In this document: in pieces, positions 19,475-29,079 of the stretch
Layout: each line of letters starts with the position of its first letter
Position numbering within the stretch: position 1 is the first letter of the stretch
DNA from: Candidatus Saccharimonadota bacterium
Lineage (GTDB): Bacteria > Pseudomonadota > Gammaproteobacteria > Enterobacterales > Enterobacteriaceae
Length of the DNA stretch: 32,000 nt
NCBI GenBank assembly: GCA_049942775.1
Contig: CP188087.1
Span: forward strand, 501,872 to 533,871
Reading direction: 5' to 3'
Notes under the pieces: generated by a model
The model's database searches: none
The model's input: the letters and a program-made list of their open reading frames with translations, nothing else
What the model was told of the DNA's origin: nothing
Made by a program: the position numbers and the translations under genes

Positions 19475-19665
19475 TTTCCCTCATTATTATTTTTCAGAAA
19501 AGAAAGGATATAACAATTAATTTAAGGATATAAAAATTGTTTGATTTAAGAATTGTAAAAAAAAAATTGATTTTTTAGCAAGAAGCTAAGAAGCAAAAAA
19601 TAAAAAGTAAGATATATTTTTTATTTTTTTTTGTTTTATTGTAAGAGCTACAAACAAAACTATTT

Positions 19666-19738
19666 CAGGGGTAGAGGGAATTGAACCCACAACCTTCGGT
19701 TTTGGAGACCGAAACTCTTCCTATTGAGCTATACCCCT
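19666..19738 (-). tRNA. tRNA-Trp (anticodon CCA)
   Basis: The reverse complement is AGGGGTA-TA-GCTCAATAGGAAGAGT-T-TCGGT-CTCCAAA-ACCGA-AGGTT-GTGGG-TTCAATT-CCCTC-TACCCCT-G. The AGGGG 5' end and G73 match E. coli tRNA-Trp. There is one T-T mismatch in the T stem. Confidence 0.88.
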
Positions 19739-19899
19739 ATTATTTTTTAAAATTTTTCAAATTCATTAATTTATAATATAATAATTATATAAAAAATTGC
19801 AAAAAAATCAAATAATTTGTTTTCAGTAAATTGAAATATCCATTTTTATTAAAAAATATTTCGAAATTTTTCAAAGTTTAAAACCATAAGGAAAAAAAA

Positions 19900-21120
19900 T
19901 TGAATTACAAACATCCAATATATTTAGATTACGCAGCAACAACACCCATGGATCCATTAATAGTAAAAAAAATGTTAAAATATTTAACTTTAGATGGAAC
20001 TTTTGGAAATGCAGCATCACGTTCTCATATATTAGGCTGGAAAGCTGAAGAATCTGTTGACGAATCAAGAAATATTATAGCTCAATTAATTAATGCAGAT
20101 CCTAGAGAAATAATATTTACTTCCGGAGCTACAGAATCAAATAATTTAGCTATAAAAGGATATTGTGATTTTTATCAAAAAAAAGGAAAACATGTCATTA
20201 CTAGTAATACAGAACATAAATCTGTATTAGATACTTGTAGATTTTTAGAAAAGAACAACTTCAAAGTCACATATGTTGATCCAGACTCTAATGGATTAAT
20301 TAATCCTACAGAAATAGAAGAAAAAATCTCCAGGGAAACAATTCTTGTCTCAATTATGTTTGTGAATAATGAAACAGGAGTAATACAAAAGATAAACGAA
20401 ATATCAAAAATATGTAACGAAAAAAATGTTGTGTTACATGTTGATGCAACTCAAGCTATTGGGAAAATTAACATTGATTTAAAAAAAATAAACATAGGAT
20501 TAATGTCTTTTTCAGGGCATAAAATATATGGCCCTAAAGGAATTGGAGCTCTTTATGTAAGTAGAAGTCCTAATAGAATACGTTTATCAGCTCAAATTCA
20601 TGGAGGTGGTCATGAAAGAGGAATGAGATCTGGAACTTTACCTGTTCATCAAATTGTAGGAATGGGAGAAGCTTTTCGACTTGCAAAACTTAATTTTGTT
20701 ATAGAATGTAAAAAATTGAATTTTTTAAAAAATAAGTTATGGAACGGTTTAAAAGACATAGAAGAAGTTTATTTAAATGGAAATTTTGAAATTACTTCTC
20801 CTCATATTTTAAATATTAGTTTTAATTATGTAGAAGGGGAATCTTTAATTATGGCCTTGAAAAACTTAGCTGTTTCGTCTGGTTCAGCTTGTACATCTAC
20901 TAGTTTAGAACCGTCGTACGTGTTAAGAGCTATGGGAGTAAAAGATGAACTTGCACATAGTTCAATTAGATTTTCTTTAGGAAAATTTACTACTGAAGAA
21001 GAAATTAATTATACGATCAAATCAGTCCGTTCTGCAATTGTTCGTTTACGTAAATTATCTCCATTATGGGAAATGTTTAAATCAGGAATAGATTTAAAAT
21101 CAATAAAATGGAATAAATAA
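19900..21120 (+). CDS. iscS: cysteine desulfurase IscS
   Basis: 406-aa [17 protein letters not shown] is the N-terminal region, [17 protein letters not shown] carries the PLP-lysine, and SSGSACTS carries the catalytic Cys. The start is TTG at 19900, with AAGGA about 8 nt upstream. Confidence 0.95.
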
Positions 21121-21146
21121 ATTAAATTAAGTTAACGAGGATAAAA

Positions 21147-21575
21147 ATGTCATATAGTAAAAAAGTAATAGATCACTATGAAAATCCTAGAAATGTAGGA
21201 TCTTTTTCAGAAGACGATATTAATTCTGACAAAGATATAAATATTGGAAATGGTTTGGTAGGTTCACCTTCTTGTGGTGATGTCATGAAATTACAAATTA
21301 AAGTTAACAATGAAGGTATAATTGAAGATGCAAAATTTAAAACATACGGATGTGGTTCTGCTATTGCTGCTAGTTCATTAGCTACTGAATTAGTTAAAGG
21401 AAAATCTTTAAAAGAAGCTAAAAATATAAAAAATGTTAATATAGCCCAAGAATTGGATTTACCTCCTGTTAAAATACATTGTTCTATTTTAGCAGAAGAT
21501 GCAATTAAAGCAGCAATTTTAGATTACAAAAATAAAAAAATAAAACAAAATCAACAGTTTGATTCTAAATCATAA
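21147..21575 (+). CDS. iscU: iron-sulfur cluster scaffold IscU
   Basis: 142-aa ORF. KVIDHYENPRNVGSF, CGDVMKLQI, YGCGSAIASS and LPPVKIHCSILAEDAIKAA are all near-identical to E. coli IscU. GAGGA lies upstream. There are a small N-terminal insertion and a C-terminal tail. Confidence 0.96.
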   Translation: MSYSKKVIDHYENPRNVGSFSEDDINSDKDINIGNGLVGSPSCGDVMKLQIKVNNEGIIEDAKFKTYGCGSAIAASSLATELVKGKSLKEAKNIKNVNIAQELDLPPVKIHCSILAEDAIKAAILDYKNKKIKQNQQFDSKS

Positions 21576-21725
21576 ATATAACAATTTATCAAAATTTTTT
21601 AAATTCAATAAAAGTTAGGTATATTTTTAAAATATTTATAAATAAAATAAATTTTAGAACTTTTAAAAAAAATTAGAAATATTTTAGTTAAAATTTTTCT
21701 ATTTATTTAATCAGAAGTATTATTA

Positions 21726-24700
21726 GATCGATCCCATGACTGACATCGATGCAAGTTAGTTCTACTACTGATCATAGATGCAAGTACGATGAGCGATCGA
21801 TCCCATGACTGACATCGATGATGCAAGTTAGTTCTACTACTGATCATAGATGCAAGTACGATGAGCGATCGATCCCATGACTGACATCGATGCAAGTTAG
21901 TTCTACTACTGATCATAGATGCAAGTACGATGAGCGATCGATCCCATGACTGACATCGATGCAAGTTAGTTCTACTACTGATCATAGATGCAAGTACGAT
22001 GAGCGATCGATCCCATGACTGACATCGATGCAAGTTAGTTCTACTACTGATCATAGATGCAAGTACGATGAGCGATCGATCCCATGACTGACATCGATGC
22101 AAGTTAGTTCTACTACTGATCATAGATGCAAGTACGATGAGCGATCGATCCCATGACTGACATCGATGCAAGTTAGTTCTACTACTGATCATAGATGCAA
22201 GTACGATGAGCGATGAGCGATCGATCCCATGACTGACATCGATGCAAGTTAGTTCTACTACTGATCATAGATGCAAGTACGATGAGCGATCGATCCCATG
22301 ACTGACATCGATGCAAGTTAGTTCTACTACTGATCATAGATGCAAGTACGATGAGCGATCGATCCCATGACTGACATCGATGCAAGTTAGTTCTACTACT
22401 GATCATAGATGCAAGTACGATGAGCGATCGATCCCATGACTGACATCGATGCAAGTTAGTTCTACTACTGATCATAGATGCAAGTACGATGAGCGATCGA
22501 TCCCATGACTGACATCGATGCAAGTTAGTTCTACTACTGATCATAGATGCAAGTACGATGAGCGATCGATCCCATGACTGACATCGATGCAAGTTAGTTC
22601 TACTACTGATCATAGATGCAAGTACGATGAGCGATCGATCCCATGACTGACATCGATGCAAGTTAGTTCTACTACTGATCATAGATGCAAGTACGATGAG
22701 CGATCGATCCCATGACTGACATCGATGCAAGTTAGTTCTACTACTGATCATAGATGCAAGTACGATGAGCGATCGATCCCATGACTGACATCGATGCAAG
22801 TTAGTTCTACTACTGATCATAGATGCAAGTACGATGAGCGATCGATCCCATGACTGACATCGATGCAAGTTAGTTCTACTACTGATCATAGATGCAAGTA
22901 CGATGAGCTGATCATGACATCGATGCAAGTACGATGAGCGAGATGATGAGCGATCGATCCCATGACTGACATCGATGCAAGTTAGTTCTACTACTGATCA
23001 TAGATGCAAGTACGATGAGCGATCGATGACTGACATCGATGCAAGTTAGTTCTACTACTGATCATAGATGCAAGTACGATGCGATCGAATGACTGACATC
23101 GATGCAAGTTAGTTCTACTACTGATCATAGATGCAAGTACGATGAGCGATCGATCCCATGACTGACATCGATGCAAGATCATAGATGCAAGTACGATGAG
23201 CGATCGATCCCATGACTGACATCGATGCAAGTTAGTTCTACTACTGATCATAGATGCAAGTACGATGAGCGATCGATGCAAGATCCCATGACTGACATCG
23301 ATGCAAGTTAGTTCTACTACTGATCATAGATGCAAGTACGATGAGCGATCGATCCCATGACTGACATCGATGCAAGTTAGTTCTGATCATAGATGCAATC
23401 ATAGATGCAAGTACGATGAGCGATCGATAGATGACTGACATCGATGCAAGTCGATGCAAGTTAGTTCTACTACTGATCATAGATGCAAGTACGATGAGCG
23501 ATCGATCCCATGACTGACATCGATGCAAGTTAGTTCTACTACTGATCATAGATGCAAGTACGATGAGCGATCGATCATGATGACTGACATCGATGCAAGT
23601 TAGTTCTACTACTGATCATAGATGCAAGTACGATGAGCGATCGATCCCATGACTGACATCGATGCAAGTTAGTTCTACTACTGATCATAGATGCAAGTAC
23701 GATGAGCGATCGATCCCATGACTGACATCGATGCAAGTTAGTTCTACTACTGATCATAGATGCAAGTACGATACGATGAGCGATCGATGCAAGATCCCAT
23801 GACATAGATGCAAGACATCGATGCAAGTTCTACTACTGATCATAGATGCAAGTACGATGAGCGATCGATCCCATGACTGACATCGATGCAAGTTAGTTCT
23901 GATCATAGATCCCATGACTGACATCGATGCAAGTTAGTTCTACTACTGATCATAGATGCAAGTACGATGAGCGATCGATCCCATGACTGACATCGATGCA
24001 AGTTAGTTCTACTGACTGATCATAGATGCAAGTACGATGAGCGATCGATCCCATGACTGACATCGATGCAAGTTAGTTCTACTACTGATCATAGATGCAA
24101 GTACGATGAGCGATCGATCCCATGACTGACATCGATGCAAGTTAGTTTACTACTACTCTGATAGATGCAAGTACGATGAGCGATCGATCCCATGACTGAC
24201 ATCGATGCAAGTTAGTTCTACTACTGATCATAGATGCAAGTACGATGAGCGATCGATCCCATGACTGACATCGATGCAAGTTAGTTCTACTACTGATCAT
24301 AGATGCAAGTACGATGAGCGATCGATCCCATGACTGACATCGATGCAAGTTAGTTCTACTACTGATCATAGATGCAAGTACGATGAGCGATCGATCCCAT
24401 GACTGACATCTCTGATCATAGATGCAAGTACGATGAGCGATCGATCCCATGACTGACATCGATGCAAGTTAGTTCTACTACTGATCATAGATGCAAGTAC
24501 GATGAGCGATCGATTGACTACTATGCTGATCTGATAGATGCAAGTACGATGAGCGATCGATCCCATGACATGACATGATCATAGATGCAATGCAAGTTAG
24601 ATCGATCCCATGACTGACATCGATGCAAGTTAGTTCTACTACTGATCATAGATGCAAGTACGATGAGCGATCGATCCCATGACTGACATCGATGCAAGTT

Positions 24701-27001
24701 AGTTCTACTACTGATCATAGATGCAAGTACGATGAGCGATCGATCCCATGACTGACATCTGATGCAAGTTAGTTCTACTACTGATCATAGATGCAAGTAC
24801 GATGAGCGATCGATCCCATGACTGACATCGATGCAAGTTAGTTCTACTACTGATCATAGATGCAAGTACGATGAGCGATCGATCCCATGACTGACATCGA
24901 TGCAAGTTAGTTCTATGCTACTGATCATAGATGCAAGTACGATGAGCGATCGATCCCATGACTGACATCGATGCAAGTTGTTCTACTAGTTCTATCTGAT
25001 CATAGATGCAAGTACGATGACGATCGATCCCATGACTGACATCGATGCAAGTTAGTTCTACTACTGATCATAGATGCAAGTACGATGAGCGATCGATCCC
25101 ATGACTGACATCCATGATGCAAGTTAGTTCTACTACTGATCATAGATGCAAGTACGATGAGCGATCGATCCCATGACTGACATCGATGCAAGTTAGTTCT
25201 ACTACTGATCATAGATGCAAGTACGATGAGCGATGATCCCATGACTGACATCGATGCAAGTTAGTTCTACTACTGATCATAGATGCAAGTACGATGAGCG
25301 ATCGATCCCATGACTGACATCGATGCAAGTTAGTTCTACTCAAGTACGATGAGCGATCGATCCCATGACTGACATCGATGCAAGTTAGTTCTACTACTGA
25401 TCATAGATGCAAGTACGATGAGCGATCGATCCCATGACTGACATCGATGCAAGTTAGTTCTACTACTGATCATAGATGCAAGTACGATGAGCGATCGATC
25501 CCATGACTGACATCGATGCAAGTTAGTTCTACTACTGATCTGATCATAGATGCAAGTACGATGAGCGATCGATCCCATGACTGACATCGATGCAAGTTAG
25601 TTCTACTACTGATCATAGATGCAAGTACGATGAGCGATCGATCCCATGACTGACATCGATGCAAGTTAGTTCTACTACTGATCATAGATGCAAGTACGAT
25701 GAGCGATCGATCCCATGACTGACATCGATGCAAGTTAGTTCTACTACTGATCATAGATGCAAGTACGATGAGCGATCGATCCCATGACTGACATCGATGC
25801 AAGAGTACGATGAGCGATCGATCCCATGACTGACATCGATGCAAGTTAGTTCTACTACTGATCATAGATGCAAGTACGATGAGCGATCGATCCCATGACT
25901 GACATCGACATACTGATCATACTGATGCAAGTACGATGAGCGATCGATCCCATGACTGACATCGATGCAAGTTAGTTCTACTACTGATCATAGATGCAAG
26001 TACGATGAGCGATCGATCCCATGACTGACATCGATGCAAGTTAGTTCTACTACTGATCATAGATGCAAGTACGATGAGCGATCGATCCCATGACTGACAT
26101 CGATGCAAGTTAGTTCTACTACTGATCATAGATGCAAGTACGATGAGCGATCGATCCCATGACTGACATCGATGCAAGTTAGTTCTACTACTGATCATAG
26201 ATGCAAGTACGATGAGCGATCGATCCCATGACTGACATCGATGCAAGTTAGTTCTACTACTGATCATAGATGCAAGTACGATGAGCGATCGATCCCATGA
26301 TCGATCCAAGTTAGTTCTACTACTGATCATAGATGCAAGTACGATGAGCGATCGATCCCATGACTGACATCGATGCAAGATCTGATCATCGATCCCAGAT
26401 GCAAGTTCTACTACTGATCATAGATGCAAGTACGATCGATCCCATGACTGACCGATGAGAGCGATCGATCCCATGACTGACATCGATGCAAGTTAGTTCT
26501 ACTACTGATCATAGATGCAAGTACGATGAGCGATCGATCCCATGACTGACATCGATGCAAGTTAGTTCTACTACTGATCATAGATGCAAGTACGATGAGC
26601 GATCGATCCCATGACTGACATCGATGCAAGTTAGTTCTACTACTGATCATAGATGCAAGTACGATGAGCGATCGATCCCATGACTGACATCGATGCAAGT
26701 TAGTTCTACTACTGATCATAGATGCAAGTACGATGAGCGATCGATCCCATGACTGACATCGATGCAAGTTAGTTCTACTACTGATCATAGATGCAAGCGA
26801 TATCCCATGACGATGCAAGTTAGTTCTACTACTGATCATAGATGCAAGTACGATGAGCGATCGATCCCATGACTGACATCGATGCAAGTTAGTTCTACTA
26901 CTGATCATGACATCGATGCAAGATGATGCAATGACTGACATCGATGCAAGTTAGTTCTACTACTGATCATAGATGCAAGTACGATGAGCGATCGATCCCA
27001 T
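21726..27001. repeat. 69-bp-period tandem repeat array, about 76 unit equivalents. Consensus: ATCGATCCCATGACTGACATCGATGCAAGTTAGTTCTACTACTGATCATAGATGCAAGTACGATGAGCG
   Basis: Direct reading places unit starts at 21727 and 21796 (69 bp apart), then 21868 (69 plus a 3-bp insertion). The pattern continues to 27001. The unit has 30 G+C of 69 by hand count, against flanks that are visibly about one-fifth G+C. Both junctions with AT-rich spacer are abrupt. There are no spacers, so it is not CRISPR. Confidence 0.97.
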
Positions 27002-27050
27002 AATAAAAACACAATTGTCTGAAGATTTTTAAAAAAAAAAGATAAAACTC

Positions 27051-27575
27051 ATGAAAAATTATTTTAAAATTTTTAATTTACCTATTTCATTTCAACTAGA
27101 TAAAAAACAGCTAACAAAAAATTTTTATGAACTTCAAAAAAAATATCATCCTGATTTTTGTATTGATGAAGATAAAATAAAAAAGTCTAATTTAATGAAA
27201 AAATCCATTAAAATTAATCATGCCTATAAAATTTTGATTGATCCTATAAAAAGAGCTGAATATTATATACGTATAAATTATCTAAATTTCGAAAAAGAAA
27301 AAAAAGATATTCCATTTGATATAATTTTTTTAAAAAAACATATGAAGTTATGTGAAGAACTAGAACATATTAAAAAATCTTCTAAAAAAAATGAAAAAAT
27401 AATGCAATTTTTTTTAAAAAAAATTGACGATTTAATTTTTTTATATTTGCATAAAATTGAAAGAAAATTTATCAACAAAGAATGGGAAACTGCTATTACT
27501 ATTTTAAATAAATTATTTTTTTTAAAGAGAATAAAATATTCTACAATTCAAGAAATTAGTAATTTAAATAAATAA
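27051..27575 (+). CDS. hscB: Fe-S cluster co-chaperone HscB
   Basis: 174-aa ORF. NYFKIFNLPISFQLDKKQLTKNFYELQKKYHPD is the J-domain with its HPD motif. Length is close to E. coli HscB, and hscA follows. Confidence 0.9.
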   Translation: MKNYFKIFNLPISFQLDKKQLTKNFYELQKKYHPDFCIDEDKIKKSNLMKKSIKINHAYKILIDPIKRAEYYIRINYLNFEKEKKDIPFDIIFLKKHMKLCEELEHIKKSSKKNEKIMQFFLKKIDDLIFLYLHKIERKFINKEWETAITILNKLFFLKRIKYSTIQEISNLNK

Positions 27576-27597
27576 ATTGAAAAATTAAGGTTTTTAT

Positions 27598-29079
27598 ATG
27601 TCTAAAAAAAAAAAATTATGCATTGGATTTGATTTAGGGACGACAAATTCTTTAGTTGCAAGATTTTCCTGTAATAAAATCAAAATATTAAAAGATGAAA
27701 ATGGAAAGAAATTGTTGCCTTCAGTTGTTCAATATAAAAAAAATAAAATTTTAGTTGGTTGGAATGCAGTAAAAAACTATAAAGACGACTCAGAAAATAC
27801 AATTTTTTCTATAAAAAGACTAGTAGGATTATCAGAAAAAAAAATAAAAGTTTTATACCCTAAATTGCCGTATTTGTATAAAAAAAACAACGATAACAAA
27901 GTTTGTATCAAAACAATTCAAGGATATATACAAGTTTCTTGTATTATTAGTCAAATTTTATTTGTATTAAAAGAAAGAGCAATAAATTTTTTTAAGCAAG
28001 AAATTGATCATTCAGTAATAACTGTTCCGGCATATTTTGATAATAAACAAAGAAAAGAAATCAAAAAATCAGCTTTCTTAGCTGGATTAAAAAATGTACG
28101 ATTATTAAATGAACCTACTGCAGCGGCTATTGCATATGGATGTGATTTAAAAAAAACAGAATTAGTTGCTGTTTATGATTTAGGAGGGGGTACTTTTGAC
28201 TTTTCTTTATTAAAATTAGAAAATGAAGTTTTTGAAGTATTAACCACAACTGGAAATTCTCATTTAGGTGGAGATGATTTTGATTTTTTATTGTTAAAAT
28301 ATATATATAAAAAATATCATTTATTTTTCGCTAATTCAAAAACCAAAGCAGAGATGTTTTTAAAAGTAAAAATTTTAAAAACAGAACTAACTTTTAAAGA
28401 AAAAGTAATCTTTAAAATTCAAGATTTTATAATAGAAATCACTAGAAATGAATTTAATCAATTAATTAATAAATTAGTAGAAAAAACACTTATAATTTGC
28501 AAAAAAGCACTAATATCTGTTGAAGTTCAGATAAATGAAATTAATGAGATTATATTAGTAGGTGGTTCTACTTATATTCCTATTATTCGAGACAAGATAG
28601 CTTTATTTTTTAAAAAAAGCCCCCTTTTTTTTGTTAATCCAGAAGAAGCTGTTGTAATCGGATCTGCTATTCATTCTGAAAATCTTTCTGAAAATATTAA
28701 TAAAAAAAAGAAATTTTTGTTAATTGATGTATTGCATTTATCTTTAGGAATTGAAGTAATGGGAGGGATAGTTGAAAAAATAATTACAAAAAACGAAAAA
28801 TTACCAACAGAATGCACAAAAGTTTTTACTAATTTTCAAGATAATCAAACTTCAATTAAGATACATATTTTGCAGGGAGAAGATAAATTAGTAAAAAACT
28901 GTCGTTCTTTATTTTGTTTTTCATTATCAGGAATAACTCCTCAATTAGCTGGAGTGAATAGAATTTTTGTTAATTTTAAAATCGACAATGATGGATTATT
29001 GCATGTTACTGCAATAGATAAAATTAGTAAAAATAGAAAAAATGTTATAATCAATACCGTTGATAGTAAAAATATTTAA
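27598..29079 (+). CDS. hscA: Fe-S cluster chaperone HscA (Hsp70 family), C-terminally short
   Basis: 493-aa ORF. IGFDLGTTNSLVA, VITVPAYFDNKQR, LLNEPTAAAIAYG, VYDLGGGTFDFSLL and LVGGSTYIPIIR are Hsp70/HscA ATPase motifs. The substrate-binding beta domain is present through DNDGLLHVTAIDK. The ORF then stops about 110 aa earlier than E. coli HscA (616 aa). Confidence 0.9.
   Translation: MSKKKKLCIGFDLGTTNSLVARFSCNKIKILKDENGKKLLPSVVQYKKNKILVGWNAVKNYKDDSENTIFSIKRLVGLSEKKIKVLYPKLPYLYKKNNDNKVCIKTIQGYIQVSCIISQILFVLKERAINFFKQEIDHSVITVPAYFDNKQRKEIKKSAFLAGLKNVRLLNEPTAAAIAYGCDLKKTELVAVYDLGGGTFDFSLLKLENEVFEVLTTTGNSHLGGDDFDFLLLKYIYKKYHLFFANSKTKAEMFLKVKILKTELTFKEKVIFKIQDFIIEITRNEFNQLINKLVEKTLIICKKALISVEVQINEINEIILVGGSTYIPIIRDKIALFFKKSPLFFVNPEEAVVIGSAIHSENLSENINKKKKFLLIDVLHLSLGIEVMGGIVEKIITKNEKLPTECTKVFTNFQDNQTSIKIHILQGEDKLVKNCRSLFCFSLSGITPQLAGVNRIFVNFKIDNDGLLHVTAIDKISKNRKNVIINTVDSKNI

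Follow-up and report, generated by a model that had tools for sequence, protein, structure and literature searches.

The chromosome of Buchnera aphidicola from Tetraneura sorini (CP188087, 533,871 bp; PMC12243488) carries, between its genes iscU and hscB, a 5,276-nt tandem array of 69-bp units, located at positions 21726–27001 of the 32,000-nt stretch of DNA analysed here (hereafter “the window”). This array is a genuine, lineage-specific and non-coding minisatellite of Tetraneura Buchnera. It occurs at the same locus in three other Tetraneura lineages, its units evolve in concert, and their sequence is held against the AT mutation pressure of the genome. A preliminary description of the window had drawn attention to the variants inside the array, and had ascribed them to a very recent slippage-driven expansion, to long-read errors in a repeat, or to a simulated or engineered sequence. 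That interpretation is partly supported, and the main result, a conserved and apparently constrained satellite, goes beyond it. The explanation that we favour, and consider probable, is that of a real non-coding satellite, concerted and constrained, in which the damage to the right of position 22909 is of mixed origin. The array is mentioned neither in the T. sorini genome announcement (PMC12243488) nor in the T. ulmi paper.

The Array and Its Junctions

Tandem Repeats Finder detects a period of 69 bp from 21726 to about 27000. The array, to which no strand is assigned, comprises about 76.5 units lying head to tail at a constant period, as in a satellite, and 45 of them are exact in-register copies of the consensus GATCGATCCCATGACTGACATCGATGCAAGTTAGTTCTACTACTGATCATAGATGCAAGTACGATGAGC. 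Its composition sets it apart: the GC fraction is 0.43–0.44 (43.5% for the whole array) vs. 0.15–0.34 in the rest of the window, which has about 23% GC overall. The unit is itself a dimer, both half-units carrying GATGCAAGT, and it is dense in short direct repeats (TGACTGAC, ACTACT, AGTTAGTT and the two copies of GATGCAAGT) as well as in palindromes (GATCGATC, CATCGATG and TGATCA). ClaI, PvuI and BclI each have a site in every consensus unit. GATC, counted with a possible Dam/SeqA cluster in mind, is found 43 times per kb in the array, compared to 2.0 per kb elsewhere, where 1.9 are expected.

The published assembly was built with miniasm and Racon from Nanopore R10.3 reads called by Guppy 4.2.3, then corrected by Pilon in three passes that used paired 75-nt reads (PMC12243488). 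The Nanopore data reached 42x, and their read N50, 4,510 nt (PMC12243488), falls below the 5,276 nt of the array; for the Illumina library a TruSeq RNA kit is named (PMC12243488). Both the Illumina run (SRR33632137) and the Nanopore run (SRR32628561) are T. sorini data (PMC12243488), and among Logan contigs the exact IscU and HscB of the window occur only in these two. The left junction, where GTATTATTA gives way to GATCGATCCC, is present in contigs L003 and L004, and the right junction, from GATCGATCCCAT to AATAAAAACAC, in L001 and L002. All four contigs end 15–30 nt inside the array, at both edges, as expected of a k = 31 graph that runs into a repeat. Beyond the array, window and Illumina contigs agree without a difference over 7,087 nt, and the window differs from the Nanopore contig at two homopolymers only. 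The array as a whole was also considered as an assembly artefact or chimeric insertion, which is rejected since both junctions are found in Illumina- and in Nanopore-derived contigs.

Two details of these contigs deserve mention. Relative to the window, the Nanopore contig L001 lacks one base in each of two homopolymers, an A run (27023–27031) and a T run (28617–28625), and the second loss causes hscA to be called as two genes in it; the Illumina contig has the A run as in the window, and ends at 28331, short of the T run. At the other edge, Illumina contig L003 stops 15 nt into the first unit (21740), after CCCATGAC, where 30 nt would be expected for k = 31. This early stop hints at a branch: some of the population may, for example, carry a first unit that lacks TGAC. 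Noise in deep sequencing could have the same effect, though.

Related Arrays in Tetraneura Buchnera

In Buchnera of T. akinire (CP188088; runs SRR33632138 and SRR32628560), whose HscB is 88% identical, a 2,160-nt array has the same 69-bp period and the same left junction as in T. sorini. The two consensus sequences disagree at 4 of 69 sites, and copy number falls from about 76 units in T. sorini to about 31 in T. akinire. The Illumina metagenome-assembled genome GCA_035718965.1 and several unrelated Sequence Read Archive runs hold a unit one nucleotide away from that of T. akinire, and the contigs of this lineage likewise break at the array. In this fourth lineage (contigs L012–L020, from GCA_035718965.1, SRR7186xxx and SRR14373458) IscU is identical to that of T. 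akinire, the spacer is slightly different, and the unit reads GATGGCAG instead of GATGCCAG. The more distant T. ulmi (OZ060366.1; HscB 67% identical) has 38-nt units of two types in its iscU–hscB spacer, which share a 14-nt core with the T. sorini unit. Joined as a dimer (a+b, 38+38 nt), they align along the entire 69-mer, around the invariant core ATAGATGCAAGTAC. The public T. ulmi array (L006:9625–9958) is interrupted by a gap of 22 N, so that the record does not fix its length, and the Logan contig from ERR13998916 also breaks there.

Outside the genus, no array is present in the iscU–hscB spacers of Buchnera from Eriosoma harunire (58 nt), E. lanigerum (52 nt), E. grossulariae (60 nt) and Baizongia pistaciae (193 nt), and the core motif is absent from all four. 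From arrays in the Tetraneura lineages and none in Eriosoma or Baizongia it follows that the array originated within the Tetraneura lineage and has been kept ever since. A remnant of iscA was considered as its source and set aside: iscA is already missing from Eriosoma and Baizongia, whose spacers are short.

Unit Turnover and Sequence Constraint

All exact segments of the T. sorini array match the T. sorini consensus. No T. sorini unit carries the T. akinire state, nor is the reverse found, the four differences being fixed array-wide; since these species-specific substitutions are fixed in every unit, the units evolve in concert. Buchnera has no recA, as is established for the genus, and because of this replication slippage is the likely motor. 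Gain and loss of units by recA-independent slippage would outpace point mutation, and any substitution would then either be lost or be swept through the whole array. With turnover faster than point mutation, the absence of substitutions within the array is to be expected and does not date it. Of the very recent expansion first proposed, one part stands, in that the present units, with no substitutions among them, have recently been homogenised; the array itself is not recent, since it predates the split between T. sorini, T. akinire and T. ulmi.

The preliminary description had also taken for granted that old resident DNA in such a genome must show decay from G/C to A/T. This premise does not hold here, as an old array has kept its G/C sites. 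At four-fold degenerate sites, where GC content is 8–9%, T. sorini differs from T. akinire with p = 0.119 (0.12 when rounded) and from T. ulmi with p = 0.24, and 55 of the 89 T. sorini sites occupied by G or C (62%) differ in T. akinire. In the spacers, 49 of 191 G/C sites (26%) do so. In the unit the figure is 2 of 30 (binomial P = 3e-10 vs. four-fold sites, 0.009 vs. spacers), so that between these two species G and C are conserved about ten times better in the unit than at synonymous sites. Furthermore, the two changes that can be cleanly polarised by the T. ulmi outgroup alignment are both from A to C, opposite to the mutational bias. These data show that the unit sequence is held against AT mutation pressure, and two forces could be responsible: selection at the host level on a cis-acting DNA or RNA element organised around the invariant core ATAGATGCAAGTAC, or intragenomic selection for those units that are still able to expand.

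A more specific and more tentative proposal is that of a functional cis-element array kept by selection. With around 150 motifs of the GATGCAAGT type and the core ATAGATGCAAGTAC, the array could be a candidate binding platform or sink for a factor of Buchnera or of its host; it might also be a structured RNA spacer in the isc-hsc operon. The array would then have originated in Tetraneura, purifying selection would keep its G and C, and slippage would homogenise its units. We see this as a serious possibility, somewhat short of an even chance. Predicted RNA structure is modest (plus strand, z = -2.4; minus strand, z = -1.1), Rfam gives no match at E ≤ 1 from 21000 to 27700 on either strand, and a search for terminators found none, promoter-like sites not being in excess. 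A pairing between ACTGAC and GTYAGT in T. sorini and T. akinire is suggestive. An RNA hairpin kept by covariation was nevertheless rejected, because the strong hairpin of T. ulmi sits elsewhere and no conserved structure can be claimed. The array is not a CRISPR (clustered regularly interspaced short palindromic repeats) array either, as its units abut without spacers and 92% of it is exact consensus.

Variants Within the Array

To define variants, the array was parsed greedily against the cyclic consensus, which yields 84 exact segments; those of at least 25 nt serve as anchors, and whatever separates two anchors is counted as one event. The 32 anchors hold 4,876 nt, or 92% of the array, with 31 events between them. 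Tabulated against the consensus, the events confirm what had been noticed by eye, namely that the variants are length-changing and free of AT-biased decay: 31 of 31 change length, none is a pure substitution, and there is no shift to A/T. An alternative alignment with a jump model gives 3–25 “mismatches” depending on jump cost, but these always adjoin jumps and none stands alone in an otherwise intact unit. The one substitution-like change previously reported, near 26298, is in fact a complex indel at 26301–26307 with a net loss of 6 nt. The scrambled sequence (400 nt) has 42.2% GC, compared to 43.5% for the consensus, and AT-biased decay is absent from the damaged stretches.

The events are unevenly distributed. 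The left block (21726–22908), which makes up 17 units, is near-perfect, as had been seen: it contains only a 3-nt duplication of GAT at 21821 and a 7-nt duplication of GATGAGC at 22215, so that its 1,183 nt, 22% of the length, account for 2 of the 31 events (binomial P = 0.02). The damaged zone that follows (22909–26931) has 29 events interspersed among exact units: 5 clean deletions, 1 clean duplication, the rest being complex. All of the scrambles and indels previously listed there are recovered by the parse, with scrambles at 22909–22946, 23385–23451, 24515–24600 and 26380–26459, a 5-nt deletion at 23028, 1-nt insertions at 24014 and 24760, and a 1-nt deletion at 25021. The array then closes with 70 nt of exact consensus (26932–27001), ending in GATCGATCCCAT at the right junction.

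The scrambles are made of consensus pieces of 3–15 nt in shuffled order. Some types of junction are seen repeatedly, among them GATGCAAG joined to A and TCT joined to GATCATAG, and some junctions show microhomology of 4–9 nt. Other events are of the slippage type, with AGTT deleted twice and GAT, GATGAGC and TGATC duplicated. Net length changes are uniform modulo 3 (11/11/9). Of 548 non-consensus 12-mers 53 recur, most of them at the hot-spot junctions, and beyond a single recurring pair of two-variant blocks, offset by 511–516 nt, these 12-mers reveal no higher-order structure. Event positions have no periodicity (Rayleigh periodogram, p = 0.98), and artefacts of 500-nt Racon windows were rejected on this ground. 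An apparent spacing of about 540 nt between copies of the 12-mer TCTGATCATAGA was discarded as well, since it joined unlike events.

In T. akinire, which was sequenced at 181x and whose array is only 2.2 kb long, a parse gives zero mismatches to the species' own consensus and eight events, none of them a complex scramble. Six of the eight (L005:8460–9320, 9841) are deletions of 1–3 nt, and five of these six fall in GATCGATCCC (GATCATCCC three times, GATTCCC and GATCCCC), which looks like either a motif-specific basecalling error or a slippage hot spot. A methylation-driven Nanopore error at GATC would fit this T. akinire pattern, but the T. sorini breakpoints are only mildly enriched there and Dam methylation of Buchnera is not borne out by PMC4246565; this explanation was rejected.

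Alternative Explanations

That the array might be simulated, engineered or a contaminant, such as an adapter concatemer joined during assembly, is a natural thought for a unit that resembles hand-typed DNA, abounds in restriction-site palindromes, finds no exact match in GTDB species genomes, IMG/VR or JGI metagenomes, and shows no blastn similarity in plasmid or phage records, which also leaves a plasmid or phage origin without a match. The GTDB miss has a simple cause, as the T. akinire unit differs at 4 sites. Junction-spanning contigs from independent Illumina and Nanopore runs, together with diverged arrays obtained at the same locus by other laboratories and platforms (T. ulmi OZ060366.1, GCA_035718965.1, SRR7186xxx and SRR14373458), refute this idea, including the simulated or engineered array of the preliminary description. 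A coding array fares hardly better. The claim would be that the minus strand encodes a protein of 23-residue repeats and that sequencing errors account for the indels that break its frame. Of the unit's six frames one is indeed free of stops, giving a broken series of minus-strand open reading frames (ORFs) of 83–248 amino acids (aa) at 21707–26941, with up to 267 aa in T. akinire, where 4 of the 8 indels are multiples of three. By our own calculation, though, a 23-codon unit of this composition has about an 85% chance of at least one open frame in six. The frame is broken at least 11 times here by indels that show no preference for multiples of three, and the T. ulmi unit of 38 nt is not a multiple of three and gives ORFs of at most 44 aa. 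Of the between-species changes in the open frame, 4 are non-synonymous and 1 is synonymous; no homologue is found among 5.8 billion proteins, and no gene is called at the array in the sister genome's public annotation. No Pfam match is genuine: those obtained (Ribosomal_S19, RNase_3_N and others) add up one weak match that recurs from repeat to repeat, and no stretch passes by itself. We judge the series non-coding and the protein very improbable. Only slightly less remote is the idea of selectively neutral junk that expanded very recently and whose G/C richness reflects its youth. It would account for the lack of within-array substitutions and for the 17 perfect units of the left block; yet the array shares its junction with that of T. 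akinire and its spacer with that of T. ulmi, which places it before their divergence, and neutrality predicts that some 60% of G/C sites should differ when 2 of 30 do. A neutral satellite drifting at the neutral rate to genomic composition is accordingly rejected, the array having 43.5% GC compared to 8–9% at four-fold sites.

The harder question is whether the 29 events to the right of 22909 are real. Real change and consensus artefact appear about evenly balanced for them as a set, and a mixed reading is preferred. The clean slippage-type deletions and duplications are probably real, as are probably those events that lie no more than a few hundred bases from unique flanking sequence. The multi-fragment scrambles of the interior are more likely to be consensus or polishing artefacts of a 42x Nanopore assembly, because reads rarely span the array and a 69-nt period offers 75-nt reads no unique placement; real heteroplasmy of array length in a pooled gall colony may have seeded them. 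Artefact is suggested by the low depth, by a read N50 below the array length and by Pilon polishing with 75-nt reads, by the shorter and better-covered T. akinire array that lacks complex scrambles, by the 70-nt exact run before the right flank, which is about the reach of a flank-anchored 75-nt read, and by the fact that almost all scrambles are singletons. Reality is suggested by the scrambles at 26798–26811 and 26909–26931, only 70–204 nt away from unique sequence on the right, a place where some 40 long reads anchored in the flank ought to yield a reliable consensus, by 1-nt events that are not of the homopolymer type, unlike the usual Nanopore residual errors, by several events that look like typical slippage at micro-repeats inside the unit, and by the lack of periodicity in event positions. 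The rival view takes all or nearly all 31 variants as real products of slippage and of quasi-palindrome template switching in a genome without recA, each complex scramble being a single template-switch event and the left block a recent local expansion. A unit full of short direct repeats and palindromes, the textbook slippage events, the microhomologies, the recurring two-variant block and the same flank-proximal scrambles and non-homopolymer changes all agree with it. Shuffled pieces of 3–15 nt are an unusual product of slippage, however; complex scrambles are confined to the low-coverage assembly and missing from T. akinire; the variants are mostly singletons when duplication of units would spread them to neighbours; and some 60 breakpoints with no substitution need an extreme ratio of indels to substitutions. 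We consider this view unlikely, less so than the alternatives above.

Several points weigh against the satellite of mixed damage that we prefer. The division between real and artefactual events is drawn by inference; if the flank-proximal scrambles are real, the similar-looking interior ones may be real too; and the events lack the periodicity expected of windowed-consensus artefacts. The test of constraint relies on one species pair and 69 sites, and intergenic G/C sites, some of which are functional, provide a weaker contrast (P = 0.009). Finally, the putative cis-element role is read from sequence, and it comes with no Rfam match, no terminator, no promoter enrichment and a modest RNA structure.

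Neighboring Genes and Chromosomal Context

Upstream of the array, iscU (21147–21575, plus strand) encodes 142 aa, with a Pfam NifU_N domain on the identical Logan product and 99% identity to T. akinire IscU. The protein has 142 aa in three Tetraneura Buchnera, vs. 135 aa in Eriosoma and 125–129 aa in most other matches, so the extension adjoining the array is genus-specific. A unique AT-rich spacer with 9% GC (21576–21725), 85% identical to that of T. akinire, separates iscU from the first unit. Downstream, hscB (27051–27575, plus strand) encodes 174 aa with a Pfam DnaJ domain, 88% identical to T. akinire HscB and 67% to T. ulmi HscB. The hscA ORF (27598–29079) measures 493 aa both in the window and in T. 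akinire, 499 aa in T. ulmi, 494–511 aa in E. harunire, E. lanigerum and Baizongia, and 614 aa in E. grossulariae; a C-terminally shortened HscA seems widespread among these Buchnera.

The cumulative GC skew of the window reaches its minimum at about 20 kb, at the spacer 19475–19899 between the divergent genes ilvD (minus) and iscS (plus), where it coincides with the switch in gene orientation. To judge from the record coordinates of the sister genome, the right end of the window is near the start of the chromosome record, which its authors oriented like that of Buchnera APS, and the array would lie a few kilobases from that start.

Comparison With Other Repeats

Classical concerted evolution of satellites relies on unequal crossing-over or gene conversion. 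The Tetraneura array shares with such satellites its homogeneity within a genome, fixed species differences at the same locus, a dimeric higher-order unit and variable copy number. In the absence of recA, however, slippage must do the work here, and the neutral model does not provide for G and C being retained in the face of a roughly tenfold AT mutation bias. Another relevant system is sopC of the F plasmid, which has 12 tandem 43-bp repeats. As in such a protein-binding array, the Tetraneura units measure tens of base pairs and each carries a conserved short motif and palindromes. There are however no adjacent partition genes, and the core ATAGATGCAAGTAC is not palindromic. On the technical side, experience with Racon and Pilon is that long-read assemblies keep residual errors in repeats that are beyond the reach of short-read polishers. 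The damage resembles these errors in being limited to a repeat longer than most reads, with 75-nt reads that barely exceed the 69-nt period, but it is not of the homopolymer or single-base kind, it extends close to unique anchors, and it has no window periodicity.

Among endosymbionts, “Candidatus Portiera aleyrodidarum” of Bemisia tabaci has intergenic tandem repeats (Sloan and Moran, 2013; PMC3673631), with structural variants coexisting within hosts (PMC3673631). Portiera too is an obligate AT-rich insect endosymbiont with an enlarged, repeat-filled intergenic region and indels in a repeat context. Its repeats are short microsatellites (with a spike at 7 bp), spread genome-wide and tied to the disappearance of dnaQ and further genes for replication and repair, whereas the Tetraneura array occupies one locus and has a 69-bp, 44% GC unit that is conserved across the genus and constrained in sequence. 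Within Buchnera, the pTrp plasmids carry tandem repeats of 18-nt and 55-nt units (PMC4898801), which are likewise non-coding and block short-read assembly. They are plasmid-borne and flank trpEG, and the 55-nt unit includes a DnaA box and is a proposed origin; the Tetraneura unit, in contrast, belongs to the chromosome, lacks a DnaA box and shows no similarity to plasmid records. Neither the Portiera nor the pTrp repeats are a single-locus, G/C-rich, genus-conserved chromosomal satellite.

Significance

One practical caution applies to users of these genomes: the interior of the CP188087 array and the small deletions of the CP188088 array are unfit as mutation-spectrum data before they are checked against reads. 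Buchnera chromosomes are the textbook example of static, repeat-free, AT-driven and deletion-biased genomes. The persistence at one locus of a 2–5 kb array with 44% GC, throughout the radiation of an aphid genus, runs counter to this expectation, and so do concerted evolution without recA and the keeping of G and C against a roughly tenfold AT bias. The array may mark a cis-element that has gone unrecognised, and it offers a natural system in which to measure the rates of slippage vs. point mutation, and selection vs. drift, in an obligate symbiont.

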